The notes below the pieces were generated by a model that was given only the letters and a program-made list of their open reading frames with translations, was not told where the DNA came from and searched no databases. Below are positions 355 through 30,900 of a stretch of 64,000 nucleotides of DNA, piece after piece. The stretch's first letter is position 1. Every line of letters starts with the position of its first letter. Origin of the DNA: Azolla caroliniana (taxonomy: Eukaryota; Plantae; Polypodiophyta); the NCBI GenBank assembly GCA_043228905.1, contig JBHGNT010000018.1, forward strand, positions 13,888,001 through 13,952,000, in the 5' to 3' direction. The position numbers and the translations under genes were made by a program.

Positions 355-2740
355 CCGTGCCCTCTCTTGATCTTCTTGTTCACTTCCGGATTGTATGTCA
401 TTGTGAGGGAGAGCTTGGCCCCTAACTGGTCGAACAACTCCTTTTCTTCCCGCACATCTAGCTCTCCATGGTCAGCCACGATCTTGCCTACGCATCCGTA
501 CCGGCATATCACATCCTCGATCAAGAACCTGTAAACCACAACAGTCATCTTGTTCGTTAAGGCCAATCCCTCCACCTAGTTTGTCCGGTCTTCTCGTGCA
601 AGCACTAGGTACCGCATTTGGCCTACCCCGATCGACATTGTTACTAAATCGACCATCAACTTGAAGTGAATGGTTGGTGGGTAGGTCGAGTGCATCTCGT
701 CGTGGTGCCGGATTCTGGAATGCATCTTACAACTCTCGCATGTCGTCACGAAATGGTGCACGTCACGATACATCCCCGGCCACCAGTACTTCTCCTTCAG
801 CTTCTCGAACATGGCCCATGTGCCCCGGTGTCTGGACCAGGGGCTTTTGTGAAATTCCGACATGAGCACGAACTGATCCTCTTCCTTCGTCACCACCCAG
901 AGCGGCATGTTGGACCACTTCTTTGGATGTTGCCAGATCTTCCTGTCTCGTAGGAAGAACCGGTAAGCCTTCTTTCGGATTTGACCCACTTCCTCTTTCG
1001 TCCATGTCCAGATATGGTGTTGTCTTTTTTGGATATGTGCCATATCTCCGGATTCAGGAACTTGATGTACGTGATCCACATGAGCATCGCCAGGTCCGGA
1101 GTCACGCATCTGGAAACCATACCGAGAATCAATAGGTAGTTCATCTCTATGATTACCTCTATCCCGATCAAATAATCTTTGTCGGCCTTGACCATTGAAA
1201 CGATACCCCACAATTCTCATTTTACTTGGGCGTATCCTCGCTGTTGCTCACTTAACACCTTCAAACCGAACTGGATGGGGTACCGCGCGCTAGCTTCGTC
1301 CTCTTGGTTGACCACCCACCCGATTCCGGTTGGACTTGTATCCACCGTCACGTAAACTGGGGTGTCCGCCTTGTACGTTGCTTTACGGAGAGCTGGGGCC
1401 GCCGTCAGCATCTCCTTTAGTCTCCGGACCGCCTCCGTGTGCTCTTCACCCCATTCAAATTTCTGCCCTTTCAACACGTAGAGTGGCTCGTCAATATGCG
1501 CGTAGTGTGGGATCTATATGTGGTAGATGGCGCATGCTCCCAGGAATCATCGGACTTCCACGACTGACCCACACTCCTCCTTCATCATTGAGATGGCCTC
1601 TACCTTTGCTAGAGATAGTTTTCGGTCGTACGACCCGCATAGGTGACTGACCACCAGGATTTCCGATCCTCCGAAAGTTGACTTCTCCCTAGAGAAGGTA
1701 AGCCAAGCATCCTCAAGCCTCTGTGGTATCTTCTCACAGTAGGAGATGTGGTCCGTGACAAACCTCCGACACCCGTCCGCTCCGATCGACTTGTCCTTTG
1801 AGTTCTCTGGACATCCCTTGATCGGGGTGTCATCCAAAACCGACATGGTGAGGTCTGGGATGCAGTCCTTGAATACTTTGTTCATCGTGTTCACCATGTG
1901 TGCTACCAAATTGGTCCCTCCTTGTGGTAGAGTACACATCCGAACCAGGTTGAGTGGTGTTTGCATCGTCGTGATATCGTTGCTCTCCACGGCTAGTTGG
2001 AACTGGTCGTACCCGGAGTATAGGTTCCCGACTGAGTAGATTGACCTTCCAGCAAAGGCCTCCATGAACTCATCAATGGTTGGTCCAACTCCTACATTCC
2101 GAATTGTCACCAAGCGCAATGTGTTGTTCTTCTTCGGCACCATAAACCACCGATTCAAATAAGGAGCACTCGACGGTGCGAAAATCCCCATCTCCACCTT
2201 CTACTTGAGTAACTCCATCAACTTCGGAATGTGAGCCCTCGGTATAGGAATCGGTTTGAGACTCCACGGCACGTGTAGTACCATGAAGATCACCATTGGT
2301 TCTACGATTGTCAGGTTGACGCACCCGATCTCCCCCGGCGAGAATGTGAAGGCTTTCCCGTGTCGTCCGAGCATCCTCTGAAACTGGTCCTCCTCTGCCG
2401 GTGGTAGGAAGCCAACCCCACCTATCTTGAGCTTCCGCAACGTCTCCTCGGCGAACCGGTGTCCTATGCCGGTCGGATCTCGCAAACTCGGGTTGGTCGC
2501 GACCCTCTCATCCTCTACCAACTGTCCTTCGGCAAGGGAGCCGCAATTGGCCCCACCTTCCGGTCCACAATCTTGTACTTAGTGTCCACTTGGGCGGTCC
2601 GATCTGACCCGACCATCCTCCCAAAGTCTGTTATGACCTCGTACATATTGACCAACCGACCAGAATAATCTGGTTTTCACGTAGATCCTCTTCGACTACC
2701 CTCTTGATCTCCCCGAGGGTGTCATTGAATGAGACCGCCT
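355..2740 (-). pseudogene. Gypsy A pol fragments: RT, RNase H, integrase
   Basis: The ORFs 1547-2197 (LYSGYDQF, LPQG, LDD), 1217-1477 (VDTSPTGIG), 576-1220 (H..H..C..C integrase zinc finger) and 264-575 (ADHGE, YNPE) carry these motifs, with many stops and frameshifts. Confidence 0.9.
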
Positions 2741-3179
2741 TGTTGCCTCTTAGGAACACGGTCCGTGGTCAGTCCTTCGACCTAGACCCCAAGGTGAATG
2801 TGGAACAACGAACAGAGCTTAGGCGTACTGCATAAGGAGAGAACCTCTGTGATTCCTCCGTGTGTTCGGGGAGACGGCTACAACCGACTCCTTATCACAG
2901 GTTGCACTTACGTACTATTACGCTTACGTATCTGAGACACATACACTGAATTAGTCGCAGCTATACACAGAAACTCAGAGAAGATAGTATTTTATTATCA
3001 GGCGTTCTTTTACATTTCCCAAAAATTACACGCACCTCCTTAAGAGGTTTTCTGCCCTTTATATATGCAGGGTCTAATTAGCTGTTCACGCTTCCCGCGT
3101 GAACTGTTACATACGCTACGCTTATATAGTTTCTTATTCCTACGCTTTTGGCCGTCGATTACTATTCCGGCGGACAACA
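2741..3179 (-). repeat. 3' LTR of element B
   Basis: Direct repeat of 16930-17368 with about 17 substitutions by eye. The minus strand has TATATAAA followed by AATAAA. Confidence 0.95.
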
Positions 3180-3181
3180 CC

Positions 3182-3198
3182 TGGCACGCCTGTGGGAC
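3182..3198 (+). promoter_or_regulatory. Inverted tRNA-Arg-type PBS-like motif at the position where the PPT is expected
   Basis: TGGCACGCCTGTGGGAC lies 2 nt from the LTR and resembles the Arg-type PBS TGGCACGCCCAGTGGGAC. No purine tract is present on the element sense strand. Confidence 0.7.
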
Positions 3199-3442
3199 AG
3201 TGCCTTTGCACGTCGGACCCATCCCGTTAATCTTCTTCCAAAATGGCCCGGATGTTCGGCTCTATTGTAGTGTCCTCGTCCGGAGTTGATATAGGGCCCG
3301 TAGGTGCATTGTGGTGTGGCTCCTTTGCTTGGTCGGCTTGGTTTCTCCCGGAGTCGCCTTTGCCGTGTGCGGGTGGTCCGGGTACGGTGGGCTCTTCTTG
3401 AGTTAGTGGGCTGGGCTCCGCCGGTAGCGTGCTTGCAGTCGG

Positions 3443-5297
3443 CTACAGCTCAGCTTCTATTGTTACGTCCTCCGCGGTGTTGGCCGTTTTTGTGTGTCCC
3501 TGGGCGTGGGGCGAGGATTCCGCCTGGTCCGCACTATTTTCCGCGTTTTTTGAAGATGGTGTGGGCTGGACCTCTTGTTGGTTAATGGTTTCACTGTCTA
3601 GTCCTGTGGGGAACTCCGCTCGTTCGTCCCCGTTATTCTCCCCCGTTGTCCTCCCTGGTGATCGGGCCTGAGGTTCCTCTTCTTCAGTTGTGACCGGAAT
3701 TGGTGTCCCGTTGGGTTCCTCGTTCGTGTGTGTGTTGCCGGTTTGTGTGATCTGGTGAAATAGCTCCTCCTGACTTTCACCAAAATCATCTAGGAGTTGT
3801 GCGAGTTCTTCGGAGTGTTGGTCCGCTAACGCGCGATAGTCTTGCGTTAGGTCCTCCCGTACGGTCGCAATGCTCTCCTCGTTTAGCTTATAAAACCCTC
3901 GACCGTCTTTCCGCCGGTTCTCCCAGTCCGCACGATACGCGTGCAATTCCGCTGCTTGGGTTGCCCACGCCATCCATCCTTTGTCCAATGCCGTTTTCAA
4001 TGGCGCTGTGAACCTTTTTCGGTTGGTCTGGAGAAGGATGCGCACGTTATCCGTGATAGCCTGGCAGCGGTTGCGTGCGTCTTCCATTGACTTCTGGAGA
4101 TTCGCGATTTCCTGCTGTTTAACGGCTGCCGCTTCCTCGTACGTGGCTTTCAGGCCCGCCCACAATTGGGATTCCTTTTCATGATGTTCTTCTAATTTCC
4201 CCATTTCATTGTTTAGGCGGATTTCGAGTTGATGCCTTCTTTCTTGTTCGACTACCAACTGCTCATCGAACCATACCTTCTTTTTTTCTAATAAGGCCCG
4301 AAGTCCCACTATTGCCGCCTCTAATTTCTTCGCGTCCTCTCGTAATTGGGCGTTGTCGTCTTTTGTCTGGATGTGCTGGGCTACCTCCGTAGCTAGTTTC
4401 TCTTCAAGCGTTTTTACGGCCTTTCGTCTGTTAGCCCGTATCTCCTTTTCTCTGTCGGAGGATTGGCGTAGTTCTGCTCGAAGACGGTCAATTTCGGATT
4501 CCGCTAGCTGCACGACCCTTTTTGCTTTTGAGGCAATGGCGGTCTGAGCCTCGATTTCTTCTTTGAGAGCGTTGATAACATGGTTCGGTGGCAGGGTTTC
4601 GTGTTGCGCAGTAGTCGTGTGAGCTTCCAACTCCGCGATGCGTGCGTTGGCCTTTTGTAGTTCGGCTTCCGTCAGTTTCACCTTCTTCCAGACATTCTTA
4701 TTTTTTATGGCCATCTCCTTGGCGCCCGTGCTGACCTTTGCTAGTTCCCGATGGACTTCGACTAGGGCCGTGTTTAAGGGTGGTATCTCCATCCCTACTC
4801 GTCGTACCCCGACGTTCCTCTGTCTACTGACCTTGGCTAGCTGGTCCTCATCATCGCTCTCCGTTGTTTGCGTTAGGGCGCGCTCTATCATCTGACGTTC
4901 TTCATGCTCCTCAGCCATTCGTTGGGCGGCTTTGACCTGTTGTGTTGCTAGGAACTCCATGAGCTTGAAAGAGGTACCGAACTGTAAGAGGGCGCTGAAT
5001 TCGTGGGCCATATCCGGAATATCCGGATATGCCAAAACCTCGCTTTCCGCCGTCAATACAGCTTTCCCTCGTTGGGGCTGAGTCGTAATAATCGGCCGCA
5101 GCTCCCGGATTATTTCGAAGGTGGTATTCGACTCTGCTGTTGCGGGGCCTTCGCTTGCGGTCGGTGCCTCCGGATCTGTGGGGGCGTTTTTTACCAACCC
5201 CCGCCCATCTCTTCTGTCCAATTTGCGCCGTTTTGGTCTAGGGCTTTCCCGCCGTGCTTCGGTGTCTAGTTCTGGGGTTGCTTCCATGGGGTGTCTC
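3443..5297 (-). CDS. C-terminal part (614+ aa, long coiled coil, acidic tail) of the extra ORF of element B
   Basis: This is an uninterrupted ORF with E/K/A/Q/L-rich heptad-like composition. After removing copia C it joins in frame to 10484-10729 (…QEEQP|RHPMEAT…). Confidence 0.75.
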
Positions 5298-5302
5298 GGC
5301 TG

Positions 5303-5589
5303 TGTTACACTTGCGTGTTCCTCTAGTAGCTTTGATGTGAACCATTTTCCCTATACATGGGCACTTTTTACTCTAGTGCTGGCTAGAGGTTTTTTCCCCA
5401 TGTTACCACATACATGAGTCACTCATATGTGGTGGTACTTAGCACTTAGGGATATATATTTCAGCTCCTATATTTTTTTTTAAGAAACATTCATCAATAG
5501 AGAGCTATTCCAGCCATTGCCTTCCTTGTGAGAGTGCTTCTTTCTTTGAGCTTCTTGTGTGTTTCCCACTCTTCCTTACATACCCAACA
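5303..5589 (+). repeat. 5' LTR of copia C
   Basis: TGTTACAC…CCCAACA, repeated at 10192-10478. Confidence 0.97.
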
Positions 5590-5590
5590 G

Positions 5591-5603
5591 TGGTATCAGA
5601 GCC
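5591..5603 (+). promoter_or_regulatory. PBS, initiator tRNA-Met
   Basis: TGGTATCAGAGCC directly after the 5' LTR. Confidence 0.95.
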
Positions 5604-5875
5604 AAGTTCTTCATCCTCTCCATCTTCGGTTGTCCGCATCGCGGTGTCGCGGCGCGCGCGCACTTTTCATTGTGCAAATCAACTTCCGAATATAGAGAAG
5701 TGTATTTCAGCACTTGGAGCGCATTTTCAGCAGGTGCCCTGCTGTTTTACCCCCATTTCGAAGCCGTTCGTGTAGTCGAAATCGTCATCCGAGTGATAGT
5801 TTGTGAGCTGCATTTTCAGCACTCATTTCCGATTTGTTGAGGTAATATTTTACCACTTTCTTGTTCTTTGGTAAA

Positions 5876-8800
5876 ATGGCAAACAATGGTGATTTGTTTG
5901 GCATGCTTCAAGCTGAAGATAAGCTTGATGGGACAAACTATCCAATGTGGTCCTACATGATGAAACACGTTCTTGTTGCCAAACAACTATGGAACATAGT
6001 GGTAGATGTAGATCGACGCCCCGCCGGTCCTACTACTTCACAGTCTACTATCACAGATACAGGTTCATCTTCGAGCACAGTGACTTCATCTACTCCACCA
6101 ACACAAGAGCAACTTAGATGGGATGGAAAAGATGCTCAAGCTCATGCATTGATTGCACTTTCTGTGAAGCGTCATATAGTTCCACATATTCGGTCATGCT
6201 CTACGTCCAAACAAGCATGGGACACTCTTGCTTCGTTGTATGCCGCGTAACGAAGCACGTGTTGCATATTTGAGAAAGCAACTTGAGGATGTATATATGG
6301 CTGAAAATGAGTCGGTAGATGTGTATGTGACACGCATTAAAGATTTGAAAGAGCAATTGGCAAACATTGATGAGATCATTTCGAATACATCACTTGTCTC
6401 TACGTTGTTGAAAGGATTACCCGAATCTTTTCAAAGCTTTGCTACTACTATTCGTTTGGTTGCAAAAGGGAATACGGATATGTACGCATTTGATGAGGTT
6501 GTGTCTCTTCTTTTGCAAGAAGAACAATCTAGAGTGAATAGAAGTGGTTTGATAGAGGGAACACAAGCACTTGCTATCTCACAAAAAGGAAAAGGCAAGC
6601 ATGGTTCAGCTTTTGGTTCTTCAAAACCAAAGCCTCAACCTCCCTCTTTCACTTATTCCTCTAATGATGGTGGTTTGCAAAAGAAGAAAAGATGCAAATA
6701 TTGTCGAAAGGTTGGCCATACGATTGAAGAATGTAGAAAGCGTGTTAAGCGCAATGAGAAGAAGAAGGAATCCGGCATGACCATTTCTGAAAATGTTTCA
6801 AGTGCAAAGAGTGATGAGGCCAACATGGCTCAAGATTGTTGGGCATGTGTTGTTACATATCATTATGATGCATCATTGCACTCTAAATGTATGGTTGTAA
6901 GTGAGATTGATTCGGATTGGTTCTTTGATAGTGGTGCTTCAAAGCACATTACTTCATGCAAAAGTTTTTTTGCATCCTTGAAAGATGCACCCAAAGGTGG
7001 ACATGTGGTGTGTGCAAACAATGCCTCTTATCCTATCATTGGAGTAGGAGAAATTGAGCTTTCGGCTGCAAATGGAGGTGTTGTCATCTTAAAGAATGTA
7101 TTGTATGTGCCCGGTATCAAGAAGAACTTAATTTCGGTTCCTTTGATTGCCAAAGCCGGACTTCATGTACATTTTGTTGATGATAAGTGCATGGTTCACG
7201 ATTATAGCAATGGTGATGTTATCGTGATGTCCGGTACATTATGCAATGGCTTGTACCGTTTAGATACATACAAGAGGGCTTCTCTAAATGCCTTGGCTGT
7301 ACATACTTCTTCCATGGCTGAAATGGAGCTTTGGCATGCTCGTTTTGGTCACTTGAACTTCAATAGTTTGCTTCACTTGCAAAAGAAGGATATGGTTATT
7401 GGGTTGCCTACACTTGAGTCCATTGAAAAACATGCATGTGAAGGTTGCATTCTTGGAAAAATGCATCGTGCTTCTTTTCCAAAAGATAGTCATACACACA
7501 CTACAAGAAAATTACAACTTGTTCATAGTGATGTGTGTGGTCCTGTAAAGACTCCATCTTTTGGAAAGCATGTATATTTTGTTACCTTCATTGATGATGC
7601 TACTCGTCATACATGGGTGTATCCTATGAAAGCAAAGAATGAAGTCTTTTCTTGCTTCAAATCATTTTTAGCTATGGCTGAAATTTTTTCCGCAAATAAG
7701 CTCTTGACTCTACGCACGGATCGTGGTGGCGAATATATGTCACATGAGTTTAATGCTTTTCTTTGTGAAAGAGGTATTTTACATCAATGTACGGTGCCAT
7801 ATACACCTCAACAAAATGGTGTTGCAGAACGCAAAAATAGAACACTCTTAGAGATGGCACGATGTATGGTTAAAGGAAAGCATCTTCCTAACAAGTTTTG
7901 GATGGAAGCGGTTATGTGTGCAAATTATGTGTTGAATCGTTGCCCTACAAAAGCGTTGAGAGTCATTACGCCATATGAGGCTTGGAATGGACATAAACCT
8001 ATGGTTAGTCATATGCGTGTGTTCGGTTGTTTGGCATATGCTCTTGTGCCATCACAACAGCGTCACAAACTTGATGACAAGGCAAAGAAATGCATATTTG
8101 TTGGTTATAGTGCGGAAAGTAAGGGATATCGTTTGTATCATCCATTGACGGACACAATTATTGTGAGTCGAGATGTGGTATTTGCTGAAAATTCAGCTTT
8201 CCCTTTTCTTGAATGCAAAAAACAACCAACAGTTAGCTCACAAGATGTGTTTAATACACTCATGCCTTTGTTCCAAAGTGCTGCGCTTGACCATGGACAT
8301 GTAGACCAGCCAAGTGAGTCTCAAAGGGATAAAAATTTCCAGCAAATAAGTGTTGAAAATGCACGAAATGTCCAACCAAATGTGGCTGAAAATGAGCATG
8401 AAATTCAGCCCACGCATGATGTACATATTGAAGATGTATTACATAATGAACGTATGGCTATCGAGAGGTCACAAACTATGCCGAGGTGGCTGAAACAAAC
8501 TTTGCAAGATAGCAAATTGAGTGCACCTTTACTTGGTAAAACAAGATCAAGCTCTCGCCATGCATCAGGTAATTTTGTGGATTATTCTATTGTTGCAATA
8601 GCATGTAATGAGGAGCCACTTACTTTTGAAGATGCATGTGATGATCCACATTGGATGAGTGCTATGCAATCAGAAATGGATTCCATTCATAAAAATGGTA
8701 CTTGGGAGTTATGTGAATTGCCAAAAGGAAAGAATGTAATTGGTACTAGGTGGGTTTACAAGATTAAACGAAAGCCCGATGGTAGTATTGATCGCTACAA

Positions 8801-10145
8801 AGCTAGATTGGTTGCCAAAGGATATGCCCAACAATATGGCATTGATTATGAGGAAACTTTTGCACCTACTTCACGCATGACTACCATTCGTACCGTGGTT
8901 GCATTGGCTGCCCAAAGAGGTTGGAAAATGCATCAATTGGACATAAAAACAGCCTTTTTAAATGGTGATTTGCAAGAAGAGGTTTATGTGAAGCAACCTC
9001 CTGGATTTGCTACGAAAGAGAAAGAGCATATGGTTTGTCGCTTGCATAAGGCCTTGTATGGTCTCAAGCAAGCTCCGCGTGCATGGTATGAAAAAATCCA
9101 TAAGCACTTGATTTCTCTTGGCTTCACATGTAGTCCGATTGAAAGCACACTTTATGTACGCAAAGATGGGGCTGATCTTCTAGTGCTCGTTCTTTATGTT
9201 GATGACATACTCTTGACTGGGTCATGTGATGCAAAACTCGATTTTCTTATGGCTGATTTGCAGCATACTTTTGAAGTCACTTATCTTGGTCTTTTGAGCT
9301 ACTATCTTGGCATCCAGTTTGTATCCGTTGAGGGGGGAATGTTTATGCATCAAGGAAAGTATGTTGAAAAACTACTTCAGCGTTTTGACTTTGAGGATTG
9401 CAAGCCGGTTTATACACCTGTGGAGACAGGATTTAGGTTCTCTGTTGAGGATTCTAGTGATGCGTTTGATACTTCTCTTTATCAACAAGCTGTGGGATGT
9501 CTTATATATGCATGCAATACAAGGCCGGATATACAGTATGCAGTCTCCCAATTGAGTCGATTCATGCATAGCCCTGGCACTAAGCATTGGCAAGCAGTGA
9601 AACGTGTGTTCAGATATCTTAGAGGCACTTTGAGCTTGGGTCTCTTTTATGGCAGAGATACTCAGCCATGCTTGCATGCTTTTACAGATAGTGATTGGGC
9701 TGGTTGTTATGATACTCGCGTGTCCACTAGTGGTAATTGCTTTTTCTTTGGAAACTCATGTATATCTTGGTTGAGTAAAAAGCAACCTACAGTGGCGACA
9801 TCAAGTTGTGAAGCTGAGTACAGGGCAGTTTTCACAGCTACAGTGGAGTGTATATGGCTAAGACGCCTTTTGATGGATCTTTGCATGGAGATTGAAGTTG
9901 CTACACGTATTCTCACAGATAGTCAGAGTGCATTGGCTGTTGCACGAAATCCTGTATTTCATGCACGGACCAAACACATTGAGGTGCATTATCACTATGT
10001 GAGAGAGCGCTTTCATGCAGGAGATATTGATTTGGTATATGTGCCTACACAAGATAACGTGGCAGACATATTCACCAAAGCTCTTCCACGAGAAAAGTTT
10101 GAAGCTTTTCGCAAAGCTTTAGGCTTATTGCCTTGTGGGGGCTGA
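5876..10145 (+). CDS. Copia gag-pol polyprotein (gag, CCHC, PR, INT, RT, RNase H) with one frameshift near 6245
   Basis: ORFs 5861-6250 and 6228-10145 carry KLDGTNYPMW, CKYCRKVGHTIEEC, WFFDSGASKH, HSDVCGP, RTDRGGEY, YVDD and TDSDWAG. Confidence 0.95.
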
Positions 10146-10191
10146 TCTGTCACTCCTTGTACATGTTCACATCATTCGCTCCAGGGGGGTT

Positions 10192-10478
10192 TGTTACACT
10201 TGCGTGTTCCTCTAGTAGCTTTGATGTGAACCATTTTCCCTATACATGGGCACTTTTTACTCTAGTGCTGGCTAGAGGTTTTTTCCCCATGTTACCACAT
10301 ACATGAGTCACTCATATGTGGTGGTACTTAGTACTTAGGGATATATATTTCAGCTCCTATTTTTTTTTTTAAGAAACATTCATCAATAGAGAGCTATTCC
10401 AGCCATTGCCTTCCTTGTGTGAGTGCTTCTTTCTTTGAGCTTCTTGTGTGTTTCCCACTCTTCCTTACATACCCAACA
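10192..10478 (+). repeat. 3' LTR of copia C
   Basis: Copy of 5303-5589, preceded by the PPT. Confidence 0.97.
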
Positions 10479-10483
10479 GGCTG

Positions 10484-11351
10484 TTCCTCCTGCGTCGCCC
10501 GTGTGTCCGGTTGGTCGGTAGGAGGTGTTGTCCTTGGGCCTGGTTGGGTCGGTTGGGGTTCCTCCTCCCACTCTGGGGCTGCTAACTCCGCTAACCTGCG
10601 TTTCGCGGAGCGGGGCGGGGCCGTGGGTTCGCTGGGCTGTGGTGCTGGCAGGCCTCGGGGTGGAAACAGTACCGTAAGGTATTGTTGGATGATTGGCCTG
10701 AGCTTTTTGCCTGCTTGGTACGCATGCAAGCCTTCCCTTAACGTCGGCCCTGTGATGAGCCCCAGTCGACTGTACGCCCTTCAAAGGTGTCGATAATGAT
10801 GCCCGCCTTCTGTTTAGGCATCCGTAAGCGTTGACATGAACGCAACTGACTTCCAATAGGAACTTGGCAACTTCACGGAAGAAGGGATCCGGAATCTGTT
10901 TTGTTCTATAGGCCTTGGCGGAGGATGAATATGGGCCAAAATACCGCTGCAACGCCTCTGTAGGAGGTATTTCGAAATGTCTTTCGCCTAGTAAGGATAG
11001 GTCTAACTTCTTTCGAATGGAAGAGTTGGTGACCGTGTCGATGTTAAGCCGCCTGGCGATGTCCATGGCGTCCGGGTGCGGAGGTGCTTCTGCGACCTGA
11101 ATGTAACCATCCAGGCGCTTCTCCACGAGCCATCGGCGTAGGGCAGTAGAGATGAAGATCGACATTGCCAGAGTAGGTTCGTGGAGAGGAGATGGGTAGT
11201 AGTGGTGAGTTGGAGCTCTGAGATATGATGGGGAAGAAGGTGAGGAGGAGCGATGGGAGCGCTGATAGCTAGACAATGTGTTTTTGCTTTGTGCAGAAAA
11301 TCTTCTGTTTCCTTCTTTTTGTGGCTTAGGGGTCATTGGGCGGTGAGCCAT
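10484..11351 (-). pseudogene. N-terminal part of the extra ORF of element B (about two frameshifts near 10760-10825)
   Basis: It is built from ORFs 10383-11351 and 10394-10729 plus a bridging frame MPKQKAGIIIDTFEGRTVDWG. It lies between the integrase and the 3' LTR in sense orientation. Confidence 0.6.
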
Positions 11352-11781
11352 CGTGGTGCCGCGTGTTCTTGAACTCGGAGTTTGTGCATGCCTTTAGTTG
11401 TTTTAATAGTCGTTATCTTCTCTCTCTTTTTTTTTTTTTTTTTTTTTTTTCTCGTAACGGTTAGTTACACCCTATTTTTACATTATAGTACAAATGGGAC
11501 TGTCCCTTTTACGCTACTGGTTCTCCGACTTTGTCCTGTTCGGCGGTGAATGGGTTAGGTGGCGTAGGGCCCAGGTAAGGTTTGAGCCGAAACCCATTCA
11601 CTTTTTGCCGTACTATTTCTCCAGCCAGCGTTCCTAGTTGGAACGTGCCCTATTCCGCTCCAATTATCCAGTATGGGCCGGTCCAGCGGAAACGTAACTT
11701 CCCCGGCATATGGCCAATGCGCGTTTGAAACACTAGCACCGCTCGGCCCACGGTGAACTCCTTTTCCCTTGCGCTGCGATG

Positions 11782-14700
11782 TCAATCGACAAACGCTTTA
11801 CGCCGTCGTTGTTCCTCTTCCAACACAGCCATGCTGTGGACGCGTTTTTCCCCTAGTTCGAGGAGTTGGTAGAGCCGTTCCTCCTCTAACTTGGCTTCTG
11901 ATAATCGGTTCCGTACCTGAATGCGCAAACTAGGTACCCGAAATTCAACCGACATCACCGCTTCTAGTCCAAACGCTAGCCGGAACGGTGTTAACTGTAT
12001 GCTTGTTTTGTAACTAGTTCTGTACGCCCATAACGCACTCTGGAGTTTGGTATCCCAGTCCGTTCTATTTTCATTGACGGTTTTCTTCAAAATGGTCTGT
12101 AAAGTTTTGTTCATGGATTCCGCTAATCCATTCGCCTACGAGTAGTATGGCGTGCTCTTCTTGTGGACTACTGCGTAATGCTGTGTTAGTTCCCGAACCA
12201 CCGTATTGAGAAAGAGGCTCCCCTGGTCATTGATGAGCTCAATCGGGCAGCCGAACCGGCACCAGATATGCTCGTATAGAAATTTAGCTGTGACGGCCGC
12301 CGTATTTTCCCGTAGTGCCTTTGCTTCTACCCATTTGGTACAGTAATCCGTGGCTACCAATATGTATTTGTTGCTCGTACGGGCTGCTGCTGGTGTGAAG
12401 GGCCCCACAAAATCCAATCCCCACTTTTGGAAGGGGTCCAACGGTAATACGGGCTGGTGTGGCATCCTTGCGTCCTCCGCGGGCTGACCCATCCGCTGGC
12501 ACAAATCACACTTTCTACAATACTCGGATGCATCCTTCTGCGTTGTTGGCCACCATAAGACCGCCTGCCATATTTTGCGGGCTGTCACGTTGCCCGCGTA
12601 ATGGCCGCCGGCCGTGCCGCAATGTGCCTCCCGTAAAACTGCTTCTTTTTCATCCTGACGGACTCCACGTCGCCAAATGCCATCACTCCCTTTGTGATAT
12701 AAATTCCCTTCGACCAGGCAGAAGTGACGGCTTCAGACGGCTAGTCGTTTCTTCTTGTCTGTGCGTAATTGTGGTGGAGGTAGTCCTGTAGTTAAAAAGT
12801 ACGTCATTTCCATAAGCCATCGATCCGGAAAGGTGGATTCAGTTTTTTCTGCAAATGTTGCTACTTGCCAGATGTCGACGTCCGGAAAATCGTCGTCGTC
12901 TTTCTGTATTGTTTCTCCATTCTCAAGTCTGCTCAAAAAATCCGCCATTGCGTGTTGCGTCCTTAGCCGATGCTGAATTACAAACTCGAATTCTTGGAGC
13001 AGCAGCATCCACCGTGCCAATTTCCCTGTCAGGGCTTGTTTCTCCACCAAATACAATAATGCCGAATGATCCACGTGGAACGTGAATTTCCGTCCTAGTA
13101 AATAATGTCGGAATTTATTGATGCTATAGATCATCCCTAGCGCCTCCCGCTCTGTTGTGGAATAGTTATGCTCTGCTGCTGTCAATTTGCGACTTGCGTA
13201 GTATACTCGCCTGTACCAGTTTGGTTCGGTGAGTTGCATTAGCGCGCTTCCTATTGCTATGTCCGAGGCGTCGACGAACACGTGGAATGGCTTCGCCCAA
13301 ACTTGAGGTTGTACGACGAGGGCCTGTGTGAGCATTATCTTAAGTGCCTCATAGGCCTTATCCTCTGTTGCAGTCCATTAGAAAGGAGTCCGATGTACGG
13401 CAATGTGTAGTGGCATGGCGAAGTCCACCAAATACCGTATCATCCGACTATGCCACCGTATTTGGCCTAGAAACCGGCTAAGTGATTTGGCATTTGTTGG
13501 AGTTTTAGCTTGCGTAATAGCGGAGATCTTGTTTGGGTCGACCGCTATTCCTTCCTTGCTGACAATGTGGCCTAGGAGAGTCCCGCTGGTCATGCCGAAG
13601 GCACATTTTGCGGGGTTTAGGCTTAAGCGTGCGGTGCGGCAACGTTCCAGGCACAGACGTAAGTGCGAGAAGTGGTCTTTTGTTCGCCCATATACTGCAA
13701 AATCGTCTAAAAAGACTTGCATGAACGCCGGAATGTATTCCCCAAAGATCTCCGTAATCGTTCATTGGAATGTTGCCGGCACTGTCTTTAGCCCCAACAT
13801 CATGACGACCGCCACATATACTCCCCAGTCCGTGACAAATGTTGTCTTCTCTTGGTCCTCAGGGTGCATGCGTACTTGGTTATAGCCACTAAAGCCATCT
13901 AAGAAATTGTACATCTCATGGCCTGCGACGACGTCCAACACGCTATCGGTGAAGGGTAAGGGAAATGCGTCCGTAATGGTTACGGCGTTTAATTTCCGGT
14001 AATCCACGCATACCCGTATTTTGCCGTTTTTCTTTGGGACAACCACTATCGGGCTAAGCCATGTCGCTTGTTTCACTGGCCGTATGAACCCCGCCCTCAG
14101 TAGCTTGTCAATTTCTTCTTTCAAGCGGGTCACGTAATTGGGGTTCATGCGGTAGCGACGTTGTTGGACAGGTTTCGCGTCCGTTGCTAAATTGATCTTA
14201 TGGTGATAGAACTTGGGATCTAACCCCTTCATGTCCTCGTGAGCCCACGCGAACACATCTTTATATTCCGTGAGTAGTGCGATCATTGTGGTTCTCTGGT
14301 CCGGCCTCAATTCCTTTGCTATGGAGAGGAACCGGGGTTCCGATCCCATACCCACATTCACTTCGTCGAGAGCGGAAGCGGTGACTCGTCGTGAAATCTC
14401 CATTTCCCTTTCGAAGGCCGCCCGTGCTCTACTGAGTTCCAATATGGACTCTGGGTTTGGTTCATACGGCTCTTCGCTCGGAACAATGGCTATAGTATAT
14501 TCTGCCGCAGTTGCGATGACATCTATCTCGAACAACAGAATAATCCGAGGATGTTCGTCAAGGTACGCTTCCAATTCGGCATCCTCCACCCCAGCCAGCA
14601 TATTGATGTCTTCCGCATACAACAATGTTATCCCCTTAGGTTGTGGCGTGTTGCCTTCTGTAGGTACACGAACCTTGATGCGTCCATGCCGGAAACTGAT

Positions 14701-16926
14701 ACACTCGTGTTGCCAGCTCTGCTTGATATTTGTTGTTCGAAGCCATGGTCTGCCCAGAAGCACTAGGTACACTCCTGGGGCATCCAAAGCGAGGACGACC
14801 GCCGATATGTCTAAGCGGTGTCCACCCACGATGATGCCTATTTTGCGAATTAGCCCCAACGGTCGCACTGATCGGGTATCTGCCATGCGAAGCCAGAATG
14901 GACACGCCTCCCATTTGGAAATGCCCAACTGTTCGCAAGTTTTCGCGCTAATCACATTGACGCCTGAGCCGCCGTCGATTACACATCCAGGAACTTCCTG
15001 TCCGTGCAATATTACTGTAATGGCCGGGTTGTGCTGATCCACCACTGGTGGTCCCTCGTTGACGTCAGTCAGGTTTGTGGCAATGCTTGCCCCGGTCATG
15101 CCCGCCACCTGTGCTTCCATGGTCTGGTGGAAACGTGGAACTAGCTGTAGCAGTTTTTCCATAGTTAGCGTGATTTCACAGCCCGCTAACACCTGCCAAA
15201 TGGGGTCCGACCCTGGTTTTTCGTTCTCTGTTCGCTTCATTGGTCGCGTTCCGTATTGGTCGCGTTTGCCTCATACGTTCCGTATTGGTCGCGTTTGCTT
15301 TTTCCACCCAGGCTTGGGCTTGTCGTCGTACCTCGTCCTGCGCAGCCCAATCCGTTGTTTTCGTTTGCTAGCGTGTTGTGACTTGTTGCACCTCTGCCGT
15401 AATCGTGTTGACGGCGGGCCCCTTTCCCTTGCGTGCTGGGCATTGCGTGGCATAGTGTTCGGGTTGCTGACAAATAAAACAATGGATGCTTGATTCTCCC
15501 TTCTCAGCCCCAGGTGGAGTGTGCCGTTCTCCAGGCGCTACTTGCTCGTCGCGGTCCGGCCTCGTTTGTCGGGACGTACGCGGTGGCTGTTGTTGGTCCC
15601 GTCGTTGTTCCTGGTGCCGCTCATCCCCTGAGCTTTCGTCGTAACGCCGATGATCCCTATATTGTTGAGGCTTACCCCGATAGCCATTGAAGCCGCCCCG
15701 TTTGTTTGTCGGGCGTTGATGTTCGTATCGCCGACCCCCTTTGGCGTAACTCGGATGTCCACGATAATCCTCGTCCTCCGGGTCCTCCTTCTCGGACTTG
15801 TTGTGATTCCGGCGATTCCGGTTGTACCTGTCCTCCCGCGGGTTGCGATCCTTATACCGGGGTTGGTCTTCTTGCCTCCTTTGTTCCGCCCGGTGCGGGT
15901 GCCGCTGTGTGTCCATGCTGCGGACTGCGGGCGTGGCTCTGTTTAACATATTGTATTGGCATTGGTCGACTGTGTGAACCTTCGAGTGGCAGATTGGGCA
16001 GTGGATTCGCATATTGCACTCCACCGCGGAATGCCCCGAGTTCAAGCAAATCGTGCACTGGATTGCTTACGAAATTGGCGTTCCTCATCCTGAGGTAACG
16101 CTTGTCGTAAGGATGACATCGAAAACCTCTCCTCCTCGTCATCCAACTAGAGCTGTAACGCTCGTTCAATCACCATATCCGTTGTTTCCCCTTTCACGCT
16201 ATTGCTGTTGAGCGTTGCCCGGATGGGCCGGCGTAACGCTGCCAGAAATGTCTCCCGAGCCTCCTCCTCCGCGGGGCTTCGATCTAGTTTCCGTCGTAAA
16301 TTTTGGAACCGTAAGCTGAAGTCTGCTATTGTCTCGGTCAGTAGTTGCTTAACTGTATAAAACTGCCCGAGAATCTCGCGTTGTGGAACCCTCCGGTGGA
16401 AGAAACGCAAGAAGGCGGACTGCAGCTGATTGAAGGTTGTTATGGCTGGTAAATCCATCTGTGAATGTCAGAACGCCGCACACCCATCTAATGTTAATCC
16501 GAACTCCGTCATTTTCGACTGGTGTGCCACCGTCTCGGAAAGGTTTTGCGCCATGTGGTTCACATTCCAAACGTTCAAGAACATGCGAATATGAGTTGCG
16601 GCGTCGGTTTCGCCGTTAAAGCGGGGGTAGGCAAAGGCCATCGTGGGAGCTATGGCGGATCGGAAAAGGTCACCGGGTGGCTGTAGTAAGCGTGGTCCCC
16701 TCGCCTCGTTGAGGTATTTGGGGAGCAAGGAATCCCCTTTGCACTCCTGGTAGGTATTACTGAGGTCGCCAATGCGCGGCTTTTGCCGAGCGCGTTCTTC
16801 TGCCTGGCGTGTGACGGACATTGTTATTGGCCGGTCTTGTCTTGTTGGCTCTCTGGGTCGTCTGCGACTAAACATCCATTCGTTGTTGCTCGTCTGTGAG
16901 GAAACACAGATCACCAAGCGTGCCAA
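11782..16926 (-). pseudogene. Gypsy B gag-pol (gag, three CCHC knuckles, PR, RT, RNase H, INT), broken by stops
   Basis: Motifs include YPRFNGET, VIDGGSG, LDGFSGYNQV, FLDD, VDASDIAIG, YSTTEREAL, KWGLDFVGP and ALWAYRT. Confidence 0.93.
16912..16925 (-). promoter_or_regulatory. Canonical-position PBS of element B (tRNA-Arg type)
   Basis: Minus-strand TGGCACGCTTGGTG lies 4 nt inside the 5' LTR. It can pair over 14 nt (2 G:U) with a tRNA end CACCGGGCGUGCCA. Confidence 0.75.
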
Positions 16927-16929
16927 AAG

Positions 16930-17368
16930 TGTTGCCTCTTAGGAACACGGTCTGTGGTCAGTCCTTCGACCTAGACCCCAAGGTGAATATGGAACAACAA
17001 ACAGAGCTTAAGCGTACTGCGTAAGGAGAGAACCTCTGTGATTCCTCCGTGTGTACGGGGAGACGGCTACAGCCGACTCCTTATCACAGGTTGCACTTAC
17101 GTACTACAACGCTTACGTATTTGAGACACAGACACTGAATTAGTCACAGCTATACACAGAAACTCAGAGAATATAGTATTTTATTATCAGGCGTTCTTTT
17201 ACATTTCCCAAAAATTACACGCACCTCCTTAAGAGGTTTTCTGCCCTTTATATATGCAGGGTCTAATTAGCCGTTCACGCTTCCCGCGTGAACCGTTACA
17301 TACGCTACGCTTATATAGTTTCTTATTCCTACGCTTTTGGCCGTCGGTTACTATTGCGGCGGACAACA
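16930..17368 (-). repeat. 5' LTR of element B
   Basis: Copy of 2741-3179, flanked by the TSD CGCCT. Confidence 0.95.
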
Positions 17369-17373
17369 CGCCT

Positions 17374-19666
17374 CCACGCGCCACTGATCTCTTCGTCTGG
17401 GCCCAAGGCTCCACATGCCTTCAAGCGCCCTTCGACCCGCTTCCTTTCCCGGTCACTGATGCCGGTTATGGTATAACCTCCCCTCTGTTAACTGAGGGCC
17501 AAAATTTTCTACTCATGGTACAGGTGTGGGGTTTCTTCCGGTTGTCTGGACTATCGCGGCCCCACGCCTTGATAGTCCTCTCTAAAGATCCTCTCGGCCT
17601 TCGCTGTAGAGAGAGTCCCAATTCCACTCGTGGTTCAGCCGGACTGTCAAGAACTAGACGGAGTGCCGACCGTCTTGGATTTTCACCCGTGCATAAGCCG
17701 AACCGTTATCCAACACCTTTCTTTCCATCCGGACCGCCGTGATGTAGGGCTCCCCGAGAATCACAAGATGGGAGGATTTATCTTGTACGAAAAAGTGTTG
17801 GTCGATCTCCACATCACTGACCTTCACTCGGACATTCAGGCACGCACCGTGAAGCTCCTCAGTCGCGCGGGTCGCTGCGCATATCTTCTAGCCATGCTTC
17901 GTGTTGATCGGCCATTTTTCCTTCTTGTAGAAGTCCATTGACATCAGATTGATCTCCGACCCATGGTCGATTAGCGCTACTACCGGCTCCTTCACTTCCC
18001 CGATTCAGTTCGAGGTCTCCGTTGTCACTCTTGCCCAGTGCGGCTTCATGAAGTGGTTATCTAGAAACTCTTCATCCATCGCCACCTCTTCAATGTGTGG
18101 CGCCTTCACTTCGACCGGCTTTTCAGTCTCCAACTCCATTGACAACCTTTTCCTTTTTACCAAATCGATGATGCTGTCGTGGAACTCCTTCTCTATCCCC
18201 AACACTTCCTGCAACATGAGTTCCGCGCGACTGTCGAGGATCTGCTCCTCGAAGACCTTCCGAAGGTATGTCTTCTTCTCGATCTCCGAGCTTAACCGGA
18301 AGCTCGGGAACTTAGCCCTTTCCTATGGGCCGGTTGGGCCACCGTCATTTTTCTTCGGACCACTCCGAGTCTCATACCGGTTCGAAGGTTCGGCCCCTCC
18401 AGCCACTTGTCTTCCACCAGAACCTTGTAGTTTTGGCACACGGTTTCCACGAAGCCGATTTTCTCTTCAACCGGATCATTCCATCTGGTGCCCTCCTGGA
18501 CCCGCCTTTCCGCATGGTCCAACCCTTCCTTCCTTAGCCTCACCCCCGACAAGCCTTCTAGCACAAGCGGTTAGAATCCAGTATTGCTTCCGGATTCGAT
18601 GCCTTTCTCTCCACCTACTCGGATCCCCGCTGACACCGAGTAGTGAATGGCCTCAACGTTCCAAGCCGCGGCTTCCTCCATCATCCTCTTCATGCCGCCT
18701 TGTCTGGTGTTCACCTCGAGGGGCCTTCGCGTGTCACACTTGTGTACCCATCCATTCCAGAGTTACACAACATTGTTCTTGAGTGCTTGGGCGAAATCGG
18801 TGCACTCTCTCCGGATATGGTCAACGACATCGCACCACATGCATTGTTGGTCAATCGGAGGCCCCCGGTCATGTGACTGTCCCCCGCCATCTCTCTGGGC
18901 TCCTCTAGAGCTACGCCCCTGGATGGGCCCTTGGCCACGTCGGTCGAACCCGTGCTCGACTCGAGCCACCTTCATGTTTCCTCCGACTGTGATGGAATCG
19001 GTTTCTCTGGCTTCTTCCTGGCAGCTAGGTCTATCACCGACGGCCCCGCGTCATTCCATTCATGTCGTTTGTCGAAACGGCTACATACCCTTTTTACCAT
19101 GGCCCAATCGGTTGTGAGCCCTTCATTTGTCTCCAATAGGAGACCTACCTTTTCCCAGTCAAGTGGATCGACTGACTTGATAAATAACAGGACCTTGCTC
19201 GTATAAGCACGGTCCAGTCCAATTCCAAAAGACGCGCAAAGCGCTTCTCAAACTCCAGGAGAAGCATTGATGTGTTCCGGCCTTTGCCGAGGAGCTCGAC
19301 CCACTCCGTAAATGCCCTTTTTGATAACCGGAGTGAGTCATCGAAGCCCTACGTCTCGAGAAGTTGCCCCTTGAGCTCCGACCAGTTCCGACAATCGGCC
19401 GGAATCTCGAGCACCTCTGTGTGGATGCTCAACGTCACTACTCGCGGAAACTTGGACAACCGTCTATCCTCCGGTATATCCCGCATTATCATTTCGACCC
19501 GGTAGGCCTCGAGGTAGCTGGCCACGTCCTTTCTATTTAATTGGTCTGTCATGCTGACTATCGTCTCTGTGGCCCTGTTAAGGCCACCTACGCCCTCCCG
19601 CACATTTACTATCTGGTCGACATCCGCCGCCATCGCCTCTACTAGTTCGCTTCCTCGCATCTTCAA
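17374..19666 (-). pseudogene. Gypsy A gag and protease remnants
   Basis: Motifs include DVASYLEAYRVEM, CMWCDVVDHIRREC and PVVALIDHGSEI. Confidence 0.85.
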
Positions 19667-26963: not shown

Positions 26964-27980
26964 TCCACCCCCACCAAACCGCACATTCTCCGGTATGTGC
27001 CAATCTAGTGAAGTATAGGGATTCTTCTTTGGCACTGTGAAAATTGATTCGAATATGGTGCACTCAACGGCTCAGGAATTCCCATGTCGACCTTTTCCTT
27101 GAGCAATTCCATCAACTTTGGGATGTGAGCTCTCAACAACGAAATCGGTTTGAGATTCCACGGTACATGCGGTACCTTGAAAATCACCATCGGTTCCACG
27201 ATTGTCAGGTTGATGCACCCGATCTCCCCTGGTGAGAATGCAAAGGCTTTTCCATGCCTTTCGAGCATTCTCCGAAATTGGTCCTCTGCTGGTAGTAGAA
27301 AGCCATCCCCACCGATCTTTAACTTCCGTAGTGTCTCGTCGGTGAACTGGTGCCCTATGCCAGCCGGATCTTGTAGGCTTGGGTCCAGCTGTCCTCTGGT
27401 AAGGGTGCCATGACTGGCCTTTCCTTTCGGTCCACAGTCTTGTACTTGGTGTTGACTCGGGCAATCGGATCCGATCCGGCCATCCTTTCAAAGTTCACGA
27501 TGACTTCATACATTTCGACTGAACTTACCGGAATCACCCGGTCTTTGTTGAGATCCTCTTCGATTATCATCTTGATTTCCCCAAGGGTGTCATTAAATGA
27601 GACCGCCTCCACGATGCCACTGATCTCATTGTCGGGGCCCAAGGCTCCGCATGCTTCAAGCGCTCCTCGACTTGTCTTTTCTCCTGGCAACCTATGCCGG
27701 TTATGGTACATCCTCCATTAACAGAGGGCCAAAATTTCCTACCTATTGTACAAGTGTGGGGTTTCTGGAGACTATCTGGACTATCGTGACTGCACACCTT
27801 GATAACCCCTTCTAAAAATCTCTTAGCACTCAGTGCAGAGGGAGTTTCATTTCCTCTCGTGGTTCGACCGAATTGTCAAAGTCAGGATGGAGTGCCGACC
27901 ATCCCGACTCTTCCCCCTTGCGTATGCCGAATAGTTGTCCAACACCTTGGTCTCCATTTGAGCCGCCGTGATGTAGGGTT

Positions 27981-30900
27981 TGTTGGGAAATTGGTCTCTC
28001 CGGATGGGACCCGGTGATGAATATAGAGGACATGGTGAGAACCAGAAGAGAGAGCTGGTGAGAACCGAAAGAGAAGACATATCTGGAAATATGTTTTGAG
28101 TAAGCCTATTGAGGCTATATTTGTTAATAGCCCTAAGTTCATATAAGTATAAATATGACTTAGGGCAATCACTTTGTATTATGATCATTGTTGTGGTGGT
28201 AACTGTGGTACAAAGAACGATAGAGAGAGAGTGTGTGAGATACAGAGAAATACTCTGTTGTAACCGCCGGTTGGCGAAGATACAGAGCTCGAGGTTGTTA
28301 CCTCCAAGGCTCTGATTGTACATTTCTCCCATAGTGATAGTTGGATTCTGTGGGCTCCCGTGGTTTTTCCCTATTTGGGTTTTCCACGTAAACATCCTGT
28401 GTACTTCTTTATGTGTGTACTTCTATTCCATTCCTGTGTTGCACTCTTATCGTAGTGATTCAAGACTCGGTTGTGACCGAGCAATATTACGCGCTATTCC
28501 TCGCAATCTAGTATCAGAGCGAACAACACAGAAAATGGAAAAATCGTTTGGCGGCTTGTTCAAGCTCACCGGCTCCAACTACTCAGTGTGGAAGTCGATG
28601 ATGAGGGATATGCTGGTGGTCAAAGATCTTTGGTTTCCGGTTCAGTTTAGGGACAAGAGGCTGGATAAGATCAACGCCACAGTGTGGGAGGTGATGCACA
28701 GAAGACGATGGCATACATCTGGTGCTTCATCGGCATGAGCCTATACAACAACTTCAATGTAGAAAGTAAGGCCCATGAACTCTGGGAGAAGATCGGCATC
28801 ATGTTCCAAAACAAGAATGTTGTTAATCGGGTTTTGTTATTCCGGAAGCTAGTGAGGCTCCGGTACCAAGATGGCTCCAGTATGGCAGAGCACATGAATG
28901 CCTTCCAGGGGCTAATACATCAAACAACCTCGTTGGAAGTACCTCGAGCCTGGAAGATCAACACACTGTACTTGATGAATGCCCGGATTTGCCGAGAAGA
29001 AGTGAACATAGCATCTGACACTGTCAGTGAGCTGTGGCACAAAAGACTATGTCACATGAGTGAGAAGGGGATGAAAAGACTTGTTGATGACAATCTCATT
29101 CCGGTGAAGGATGTGCATCTTGAGAAGTGCACTAATTGCTTAGCCGACAAGCAAAACCGAACCTCCTTCCGGTCAAGACCACCGATGAGACGGAATGCAC
29201 CATTGGAGCTGGTGCATATCGATGTGTCTCAAGTCGACACGAAGTCAGATGCCGGATCACAGTACTTCTTGACGTTCATAGATGACCACGGCTGGAAGCT
29301 GTGGGTCTCACCGTTGAGAACGAAGGACCAAGTGCTATCCGTCTTCAAGGAGCTCCACGTGAGAGTGGAAAGAGAAACCTACCGGAAGCTGACGGCTGTT
29401 TGAGCAAATAACAGAGGAGAATACCGGGGGCAGTTCGAGGAGTATTGCTAGTCAAAGGGAATCCGGCTCGAGTTTACTGTGCCGAACACGCTGGAACTAA
29501 ACGGGTTGGCCGAAAGGATGAACTAGACCATAATGGAGAGAGTCCGGAGCATGCTCGCACATGCCAAGTTACCCAAGACGTTTTGGGCTGAGGCACTGAC
29601 AACGACGAACTATGTGATAAATAGATCACCCTCAGTACCCTTGGGAGGAGACTCACCTCAGAAGGTATGGACCGGCAAAGATGTATCTTACCGGCATCCG
29701 AAGGTGTTTGGGTGTCTCGCATACGTGCATGTGGCAAAGGACAAGAGAGCAAAGCTGGACCCGAAGTCCCGGCCATGCATATTCCTTGGATACGGTGACG
29801 ATGAGTTCAATTACCGAGTGTGGGATTTGGTCGACAAGAAGGTATTCCGGAGTCGGGACATAGTCTTCATGGAAGACAAGACCATTGCTGACTAGGAGTC
29901 GTAGGAGAAGATGACCAACTCTGGATCATCTAATGAAAACTAGCCTGAGGACACAAGGACCTCCTCGGTTGAAATCCGGATGTTAGCCGGTAATCGGATG
30001 ACACTCGACGAACCGGTCGGATTCGGACAAGAAACTGAACTGACCGAAGAAGAAGAAGAAGAAGACACCAGAACCGGACAAGATCCCGAATCAGATTCGG
30101 ATTCGGAACAGACGGAGGAACCGATAGTCAGAAACCAAGGACATAATATCCTCTCTGGGAGAGAAGAGCCCCCGGAGATTTCCGGATGCAGAGCATGTGT
30201 TGCTAACCGATGAGGGGGAGCTGGAAAGCTTTGAAGAAGCAAGGGGAGACACTCACAGCCGCAAGTGGTTAAGTACCATGCAGGATGAGATGGATTCCTT
30301 GCATGAGAACCACACATACAAATTGGTAGAGTTGCCGAAAGGAAAGAGGGCACTCCGGAACAAGTGGGTGTACAAGCAGAAACCAGGAGATGTCAGAAAT
30401 CCACCAAGGTATAAGGACCGAATCGTGGTGAAGGGCTTCCAGCAGAAGAAAGGAGTGTACTTCAATGAGATCTTTGCCCCGGTAGTAAAGATGACATCCA
30501 TCCGGACGGTATTGGGCATAGTGGCAAGCATGGACCTCGAGGTAGAGCAGCTAGACGTGAACACATCATTCCTCCATGGTGACCTCGAAGAGGAGATCCA
30601 CATGCATCAACCGGAAGGATTTGAGAAGAAAGGGAAGGAGCACCTGGTGTGCCGGCTGAAGAAGAGCCTATACGAACTGAAGCAAGCCCCCCGGCAATGG
30701 TACCGGAAGTTCGACTCCTTCATGACCGACCAAGGGTACCACAAGATGCAAGCCGATCATTGCGTGTTTGTGATGAAATTTGACGGAGGAGACTTCTTGA
30801 TACTCCTCCTATATGTGGATGATATGCTGATCGTCGGACGAGAGCAAGTCGAAATACGAATGTTGAAGAGAGCACTGGAACGCAGTCAAGTGGATACTCT

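Follow-up and report, generated by a model that had tools for sequence, protein, structure and literature searches.

We examined a 64,000-nucleotide (nt) stretch of the Azolla caroliniana genome (contig JBHGNT010000018.1, positions 13,888,001 to 13,952,000 of the forward strand; hereafter the window), in which a long terminal repeat (LTR) retrotransposon, element B, occupies positions 2741-17368 of the minus strand and carries, at the place of the polypurine tract (PPT), a copy of the 3' end of a host tRNA. Element B is a dead Ty3/gypsy copy; judged from sequence, it belongs to a Ty3/gypsy clade without a PPT in which a second host tRNA-Arg(UCU) probably primes the plus strand on minus-strand DNA. 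A wider statement, which we hold to be probable, covers the whole gypsy clade and its non-autonomous partners: the PPT would be replaced by a second primer-binding site (PBS), host tRNAs would prime both strands, two different tRNAs would serve in some families (Arg-UCG for the minus and Arg-UCU for the plus strand), and a DNA hairpin would substitute for the T-arm. The B-type site is a real, lineage-wide variant of LTR replication, and if the proposed priming is true, this would be the first LTR retroelement known to us in which a host tRNA, annealed to DNA, initiates the plus strand.

On the sense strand, the sequence at the PPT position of element B reads GTCCCACAGGCGTGCCA-GG-LTR. Of the 20 nt adjoining the 3' LTR, 10 are purines, with never more than 3 in a row, compared with purine runs of 7, 11 and 11 at three further LTR elements of the window, which agrees with an earlier sequence-only reading that element B has no PPT. 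A stretch of purines (GGAAGAAGA) lies some 55 nt upstream of the LTR, but we do not regard it as a concealed PPT, as it does not adjoin the unique 3' region (U3). The sequence-only reading had also likened the motif to an Arg-type PBS at about 16 of 18 positions, including the CCA; the Arg identity stands, while the figure is corrected by the host tRNA set, in which the tRNA-Arg(UCU) genes match both the 3' site and the PBS of element B. Pattern searches and ARAGORN identified two kinds of these genes, ending ...CCCACCAGGCGTG or ...CCCACCGGGCGTG, with the CCA not encoded, and the 3' site reproduces the final 18 nt of the mature tRNA except for a single C that is missing where T-stem and acceptor stem meet, so that 17 of 18 positions agree. 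Where the two kinds of gene differ, the 3' sites of the families carry A or G. The complement of the site on minus-strand DNA is the predicted PBS of the plus strand. Genome-wide, the pattern of an LTR end, 1-5 nt and the start of the site occurs 4574 times, a count that pools PBS and 3' sites, versus 24 times for a reversed control, so the placement of the site is not due to chance.

Other parts of the sequence-only reading held up as well. Element B is minus-oriented, as indicated by its open reading frames (ORFs) and by minus-strand words in its 3' LTR (TATA-like near 3058-3065, AATAAA at 2991-2996); its 5' end has a normal PBS that pairs with host tRNA-Arg(UCU); and its TG...CA ends are intact and flanked on both sides by the same target-site duplication (TSD). 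The two LTRs are 96.1% identical.

Conservation of the site was assessed in the host genome (523 Mb) and beyond. The site adjoins the LTR in 30 of the 30 best matches, window included (18 exact, 10 with one mismatch, 2 with two), a figure that is biased because the query contained the site. Twenty copies were also chosen by their 5' ends, of which eight reach a 3' LTR within 10 kb; one junction is deleted, and all seven intact junctions have the site and no PPT, so that element B is not a one-off rearrangement among sister copies with a normal PPT. Copies without a PPT carry normal ends and TSDs, and in 20 cluster representatives the purine run next to the LTR is at most 5 in every case and exactly 3 in 19. 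The site is conserved across divergent families, being kept in full or near-full elements whose reverse transcriptase (RT) regions are 55-75% identical to that of B and also in short non-autonomous elements (family X), with 3' spacers of 2-5 nt. It forms an island of conservation where the LTRs and untranslated regions of families and organisms no longer align. Among 80 metagenome loci, 15 match the extra ORF that follows pol in these elements; the site is whole in 10 of these, the contig ends inside the site in 2 and before its position in 2, and 1 lacks the site. In sequencing runs of two other organisms, which have hardly any sampled words in common with B, the similarity of contigs is confined to about 35 nt at the junction, and the summed depth there is high; no relative was found among viral contigs.

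The site is preceded by a hairpin, for which nine alignment cells are changed on both sides in the 20 cluster representatives, versus 3.1 +/- 1.4 in shuffles, with none of 500 shuffles as high (pair types UA/GC/CG and GC/AU), although kinship among the representatives can inflate these counts; the outer stem shows no covariation in the same 20 sequences. The segment upstream of the hairpin resembles tRNA positions 49-58 in the alignment, and by its sequence the region looks like a tRNA 3' arm split at A58. That the site might be a functionless relic of an old inversion or capture could be imagined from chimeras in this genome that join a PBS to inverted internal sequence. However, conservation across families and organisms, the covarying hairpin, and normal ends and TSDs in the absence of a PPT refute this reading, to which we give practically no probability.

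Because an unremoved primer gets copied, we searched the genome for the tRNA's own version of the sequence, with the extra C and the CCA. This census gave 93 distinct sites, of which automatic classing placed 49 at the unique 5' region (U5) and 6 at U3 and left 38 unclassed. Two of the six (L143 and L291) were dropped as ordinary 3' sites with one extra base, and three were added by eye, giving seven independent tRNA-to-U3 junctions (L086, L132-134 as one event, L138/139 as one event, L142, L153, L157 and L303). The joined copies of mature tRNA-Arg(UCU) are 18 to ~63 nt long, and in seven of seven they have the CCA plus the C that is missing from the element's site. Four reach tRNA gene positions 14-21, two begin exactly at position 59, and one is an exact 18-mer; an LTR and a PBS follow the tRNA copy in five of the seven, and the spacer is the family's own 3' spacer wherever that family's 3' site was seen. 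At all seven junctions the tRNA lies in sense with U3, and hence cannot be the minus-strand primer. Such mature-tRNA copies joined to U3 starts are what dual tRNA priming, as put forward in the sequence-only reading, would predict, and they lend it indirect support that is independent of the argument made in that reading.

Individual junctions are informative. In L086, the 18-mer is followed by TG, a 5' LTR, a PBS and gag-pol; it matches the tRNA gene exactly and differs from the element's own 3' site at two positions. In L132-134, tRNA sequence from gene positions 20-73 lies ahead of the 5' LTR of a young copy of family C; the LTRs of this copy are >99% identical, and a large flank duplication takes the place of a TSD. 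L138/139 reads U5-spacer-18-mer-AG-U3, a circle-like arrangement repeated in tandem, and L153 has tRNA positions 14-73 and a GG spacer after a U5 end, so that the GG-type spacer of B recurs there. The remaining three (L142, L157 and L303) are family X junctions, and L142 is substituted at A58, a position methylated in primer tRNAs according to passages of PMC13191261. The other outcome is represented by L174, where a U3 end with only a 2-nt spacer is joined to a U5-side tRNA copy, and L313 has a tRNA 18-mer with CCA joined in sense inside pol, as would arise from plus-strand mis-priming. Primer remnants at LTR junctions of human immunodeficiency virus 1 (HIV-1) are interpreted as failed primer removal in the relevant portion of PMC5618025.

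On the U5 side, whole or long tRNA copies followed by a spacer and a B-type U5 end (L065/L074, L077, L078 and L087) confirm tRNA-Arg(UCU) as the minus-strand primer of B. In family C the two ends carry different tRNAs: its U5 end is joined to UCG copies (L204 and L207) and its U3 end to UCU copies. Consistent with this, the family C PBS pairs at -25.0 kcal/mol with tRNA-Arg(UCG) versus -9.5 with UCU, and its 3' site at -36.7 kcal/mol with UCU versus -18.5 with UCG. Annealing of tRNA-Arg(UCU) to minus-strand DNA is predicted at -35.2 (B) and -36.7 kcal/mol (C), values that use RNA parameters as a proxy for an RNA-DNA hybrid. Family C also bears on the suggestion, made in the sequence-only reading, that the site pairs with the element's own PBS. 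In the form of this idea weighed here, the pairing would circularise or regulate the RNA, and the plus strand would be primed by another route. Such pairing is possible in family B (-27.7 kcal/mol, or -29.3 with longer ends) and weak in family C (-12.0), where the PBS fits tRNA-Arg(UCG) and yet the 3' site is unchanged, so self-pairing is not the general cause of the site. Moreover, the tRNA is a better match to the site than the PBS is, and the absent PPT would be left unexplained. As a general cause this pairing is largely refuted by family C, and as a full account it is highly improbable; a side role in family B is possible.

In the dual-priming model, once the first strand transfer has taken place, RT would make a minus-strand DNA copy of the site, and RNase H would clear the RNA. 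tRNA-Arg(UCU) would then anneal to the minus-strand DNA, through at most 17 bp with one bulged C or through ~11 bp stacked on the DNA hairpin, and RT would extend the tRNA beyond its CCA, across the spacer and on into U3. The tRNA would be removed by RNase H where CCA and spacer meet, leaving the spacer as an overhang that integrase would trim to TG. Where removal failed, the finishing minus strand would copy the tRNA and either stop at position 59 or read on, which could give the observed junctions. The hairpin might act as a pause site, as a stacking platform or as a mask of the site in RNA, although this is a guess. LTR-PBS spacers range from 2 to 11 nt by family, implying unusually long overhangs for integrase to trim.

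The plus strand might instead be primed by the element's own RNA, with the tRNA-like stretch and the hairpin surviving RNase H as a non-purine equivalent of the PPT that ends in CCA, and with the tRNA copies at U3 arising as occasional template switches onto the tRNA that the site resembles. The RNA fold of the site is indeed conserved, with covarying pairs; one sequence (L347) starts at the element's own site in foreign sequence; and template switches onto the site do occur, as family X strong-stop DNA is joined to B-type or other 3' sites (L073, L081, L082/83, L340 and others). If the element's own RNA were the primer, however, its 17-nt version would be expected before 5' LTRs. A control search for this version with foreign sequence upstream gave ten matches (6 ordinary junctions, 2 deletions, 1 partial duplication and 1 candidate), none of which lies before a full LTR and PBS, although the filter would pass six of seven tRNA-type junctions; it replaced a first control (3 ordinary junctions) whose filter would pass one of five exact tRNA-type junctions. 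The exact agreement of L086 with the tRNA gene rather than with its own 3' site also speaks against this alternative, as do the lack of an apparent acceptor-stem partner upstream in the alignment and the letter-by-letter correspondence of the site to the tRNA, which a primer that only had to resist RNase H could do without. We therefore regard priming by the element's RNA as unlikely.

A further possibility is that the tRNA primes at the site on an antisense RNA from the 3' LTR, where the site would be an ordinary PBS, and that the product transfers to minus-strand DNA. The antisense layout is that of a textbook LTR end, 2 nt and a PBS, and the same tRNA-U3 junctions would be expected; yet the promoter and polyadenylation words and all ORFs point the opposite way, and an extra transcript and an extra transfer would be needed, with no sign of either, making this route very unlikely.

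Several observations weigh against priming of the plus strand by tRNA on minus-strand DNA. For B itself, no tRNA-U3 junction was found in the junction census, the GG spacer of its group being present only in L153, which belongs to a related family, and no clean U5-spacer-spacer-U3 circle junction turned up when family B was searched for one. Three of the seven U3 junctions were classed by eye and 38 of the 93 sites have no automatic class, and the U5 class of 49 may contain self-matches. No listed short-read contig bridges the L133 junction by 31 nt on both sides, which may merely reflect the breaking of contigs at repeats; this junction rests on the present assembly. The control is blind to primers that include the whole hairpin, and two of its matches are awkward: L347, in which the element's own site and a truncated LTR lie in foreign sequence, and L348, a partial duplication at a 3' LTR that begins just before the site. 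L350 and L353 keep the site without the hairpin, and metagenome contig L256 continues for 1.2 kb beyond its extra-ORF match without a site. Finally, the junctions could also come from a nascent minus strand switching template onto the tRNA via the shared 9-11 nt.

Further arrangements involving these tRNAs and sites were observed. Tandem, partly degenerate tRNA-Arg(UCU) gene clusters lie at C4:19.55-19.59 Mb, C11:0.69 Mb and C22:1.43 Mb (L061-L064, L067, L069 and L070), and encode the same tRNA that elements of this clade use. Whole mature tRNA-Arg copies (75-76 nt, with CCA) are fixed at U5 ends (L065/L074, L161, L177, L315 and L338), and ARAGORN scores the tested U5-end copies as tRNA genes; several other copies have substitutions at or near A58. 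In a set of chimeras (L073, L081, L082/L083, L301, L302, L308, L335 and L340), the LTR of one family with a perfect 18-nt tRNA copy is joined to the inverted 3' region of another at the latter's tRNA-like site, strong-stop DNA apparently having jumped to the wrong target. Since some chimeras have two LTRs (L107 and L108), the site may be a recombination hot spot. L145 and L147 have tRNA-like 18-mers with CCA and TG followed by unrecognised sequence, and in L145 an inverted family C PBS precedes the 18-mer. Family X is abundant and non-autonomous, with LTRs of ~340-570 nt and both tRNA sites (L111, L115-116, L126, L127, L129, L142, L157 and L303); its PBS is Arg-UCU or Arg-UCG, depending on the subfamily.

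Table 1. Features of element B in the window, and genome positions of the tRNA-U3 junctions.
Feature	Position	Strand	Description
TSD, left copy	2736..2740		CGCCT
3' LTR	2741..3179	minus	439 nt; TG...CA; U3 start = 3179
GG spacer	3180..3181	minus	2 nt separating the site's CCA from the LTR; would form the first two letters of plus-strand DNA
tRNA-Arg(UCU) 3'-end copy at PPT position	3182..3198	minus	17 of last 18 nt, CCA included, one C missing
Conserved upstream context	3199..3222	minus	4-bp hairpin (3200-3211) and segment resembling the 5' strand of the tRNA T-arm
Extra ORF, 3' part	3443..5302	minus	coiled-coil-like; split by nested copia
Nested Ty1/copia	5303..10479	plus	complete, not part of B; tRNA-type PBS, purine tract, TSD GGCTG
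Extra ORF, 5' part	10480..11393	minus	weakly like ATHILA/Transposase_32 clusters (score 0.83, a lead only)
gag-pol	11782..16938	minus	split by stops into several pieces; Pfam domains gag, zinc knuckle, protease, RT, RNase H, integrase
PBS	16912..16925	minus	14 nt pairing with tRNA-Arg(UCU), one G:U
Spacer between 5' LTR and PBS	16926..16929	minus	4 nt
5' LTR	16930..17368	minus	439 nt
TSD, right copy	17369..17373		CGCCT; perfect 5-bp duplication
Seven tRNA-U3 junctions	C20:881284; C2:12014872; C16:17527333; C2:12742724; C6:16780278; C11:11469502; C3:8094145		genome positions

The extra ORF (~960 aa, in sense, after pol) combines a conserved N-terminal domain with a long coiled-coil-like portion; a family C copy (L120:1125-4019) has it uninterrupted, at 964 aa, and no family was found for it among Pfam matches. 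The PBS of the nested copia element is presumably of the tRNA-iMet type. Element B itself is hosted by an older repeat (2127-2740 and 17369-17749), a second, uninterrupted copy of which lies at 27022-27978 of the window. Two other LTR elements of the window, at 46596-53379 and 27980-31958, both have ordinary purine tracts; the former is a gypsy element with 99.7% identical LTRs, a different PBS and a long branch in the RT tree.

The domain order of element B, gag-protease-RT-RNase H-integrase, is of the Ty3/gypsy type (Pfam). Neither a chromodomain, as expected of a chromovirus, nor an archaeal-type RNase H, as in Tat/Ogre/Retand, had a Pfam match in B or in an uninterrupted 1954-aa family C polyprotein. 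In a 40-row tree of RT and RNase H sequences, which excludes B's own RT, two family B rows that were too broken, and labelled references, all elements whose 3' site was verified group together (support 100/99), placed within a weakly supported group of seed-free-plant and other sequences and apart from seed-plant matches. Among named sequences, the closest protein relatives come from a fern and from liverworts.

Priming from a PPT is standard teaching for retroviruses and LTR retrotransposons alike (PMC5371799). A successful clade without a PPT, with >4500 tRNA-type LTR junctions in one genome, would mean that RT and RNase H can be adapted to employ a host tRNA twice. It opens questions suited to tests on short substrates, such as how RNase H recognises and removes a plus-strand tRNA and how integrase copes with 2- to 11-nt overhangs, as well as whether both priming steps could be blocked by 3' fragments of tRNA. 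We would expect annotation software that scores a PPT to miss elements of this kind or to give them the wrong orientation.

The clade was compared with described plant gypsy lineages outside the chromoviruses, which likewise have no chromodomain (PMC6317226). Like Athila, element B has no extra pol domain, a 5-bp TSD, a size of ~9.5 kb and an extra 3' ORF; Athila PBSs, however, mostly fit tRNA-Asp, -Asn or -Ala, whereas the B clade uses Arg(UCU) or Arg(UCG). An Arg PBS is shared with Ogre, TatIII and some Retand elements, but Tat/Ogre/Retand have the additional archaeal-type RNase H that B lacks. Phygy and Selgy have a 4-bp TSD, a Trp or Ala PBS and no extra ORF, in contrast to the 5-bp TSD, Arg PBS and extra ORF of B. 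As defining features of Tat, Phygy and Selgy and the Athila PBS type are absent, we file the clade only as Ty3/gypsy, non-chromovirus-like. The main text of that source, in the portions used here, gives the PPT only as a general feature. We found no description of a tRNA-primed plus strand or of such a PPT-less layout in the literature, although closed journals, Repbase, GyDB or bioRxiv supplements could hold one; a term search of the Troyka paper (PMC12440569) gave no match to tRNA, PPT or primer, and the passages of PMC10275265 that were consulted contain no precedent.

Self-priming elements (Tf1/Tcn1, TAR) have no tRNA PBS and take their primer from their own 5' end, and the B clade differs in having tRNA-CCA copies at its U5 ends. 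In canonical replication, as outlined for Ty3 and HIV-1 in sections of PMC5371799 and PMC13191261, a tRNA at the PBS primes the minus strand and an element-encoded PPT the plus strand. The B clade shares with these systems a gag-pol with RT, RNase H and integrase, a tRNA-primed minus strand, TG...CA LTRs and a TSD, as well as a primer that abuts U3 via a short spacer and an 18-nt stop at the modified A58; it differs in having no purine tract, a tRNA 3'-end copy at the plus-strand start, and host tRNA rather than element RNA joined to U3. The bipartite PBS of Ty3 and Ty1, as treated in part of PMC5371799, likewise has sequence related to the tRNA close to the element's 3' end in addition to the 5' PBS. 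In Ty3, however, both segments pair with a single minus-strand primer on RNA and the PPT is kept, whereas the 3' segment of B is identical in sense to the tRNA, and hence pairs only as minus-strand DNA or antisense RNA. The junctions described here were interpreted by the reasoning applied to 2-LTR junctions and over-extended strong-stop DNA of HIV-1, where, in the pertinent passages of PMC5618025 and PMC13191261, an unremoved or overrun primer leaves sequence at the end of the viral DNA; the U3-side remnant in HIV-1 is the PPT (PMC5618025, same passages), and in this genome it is a tRNA.

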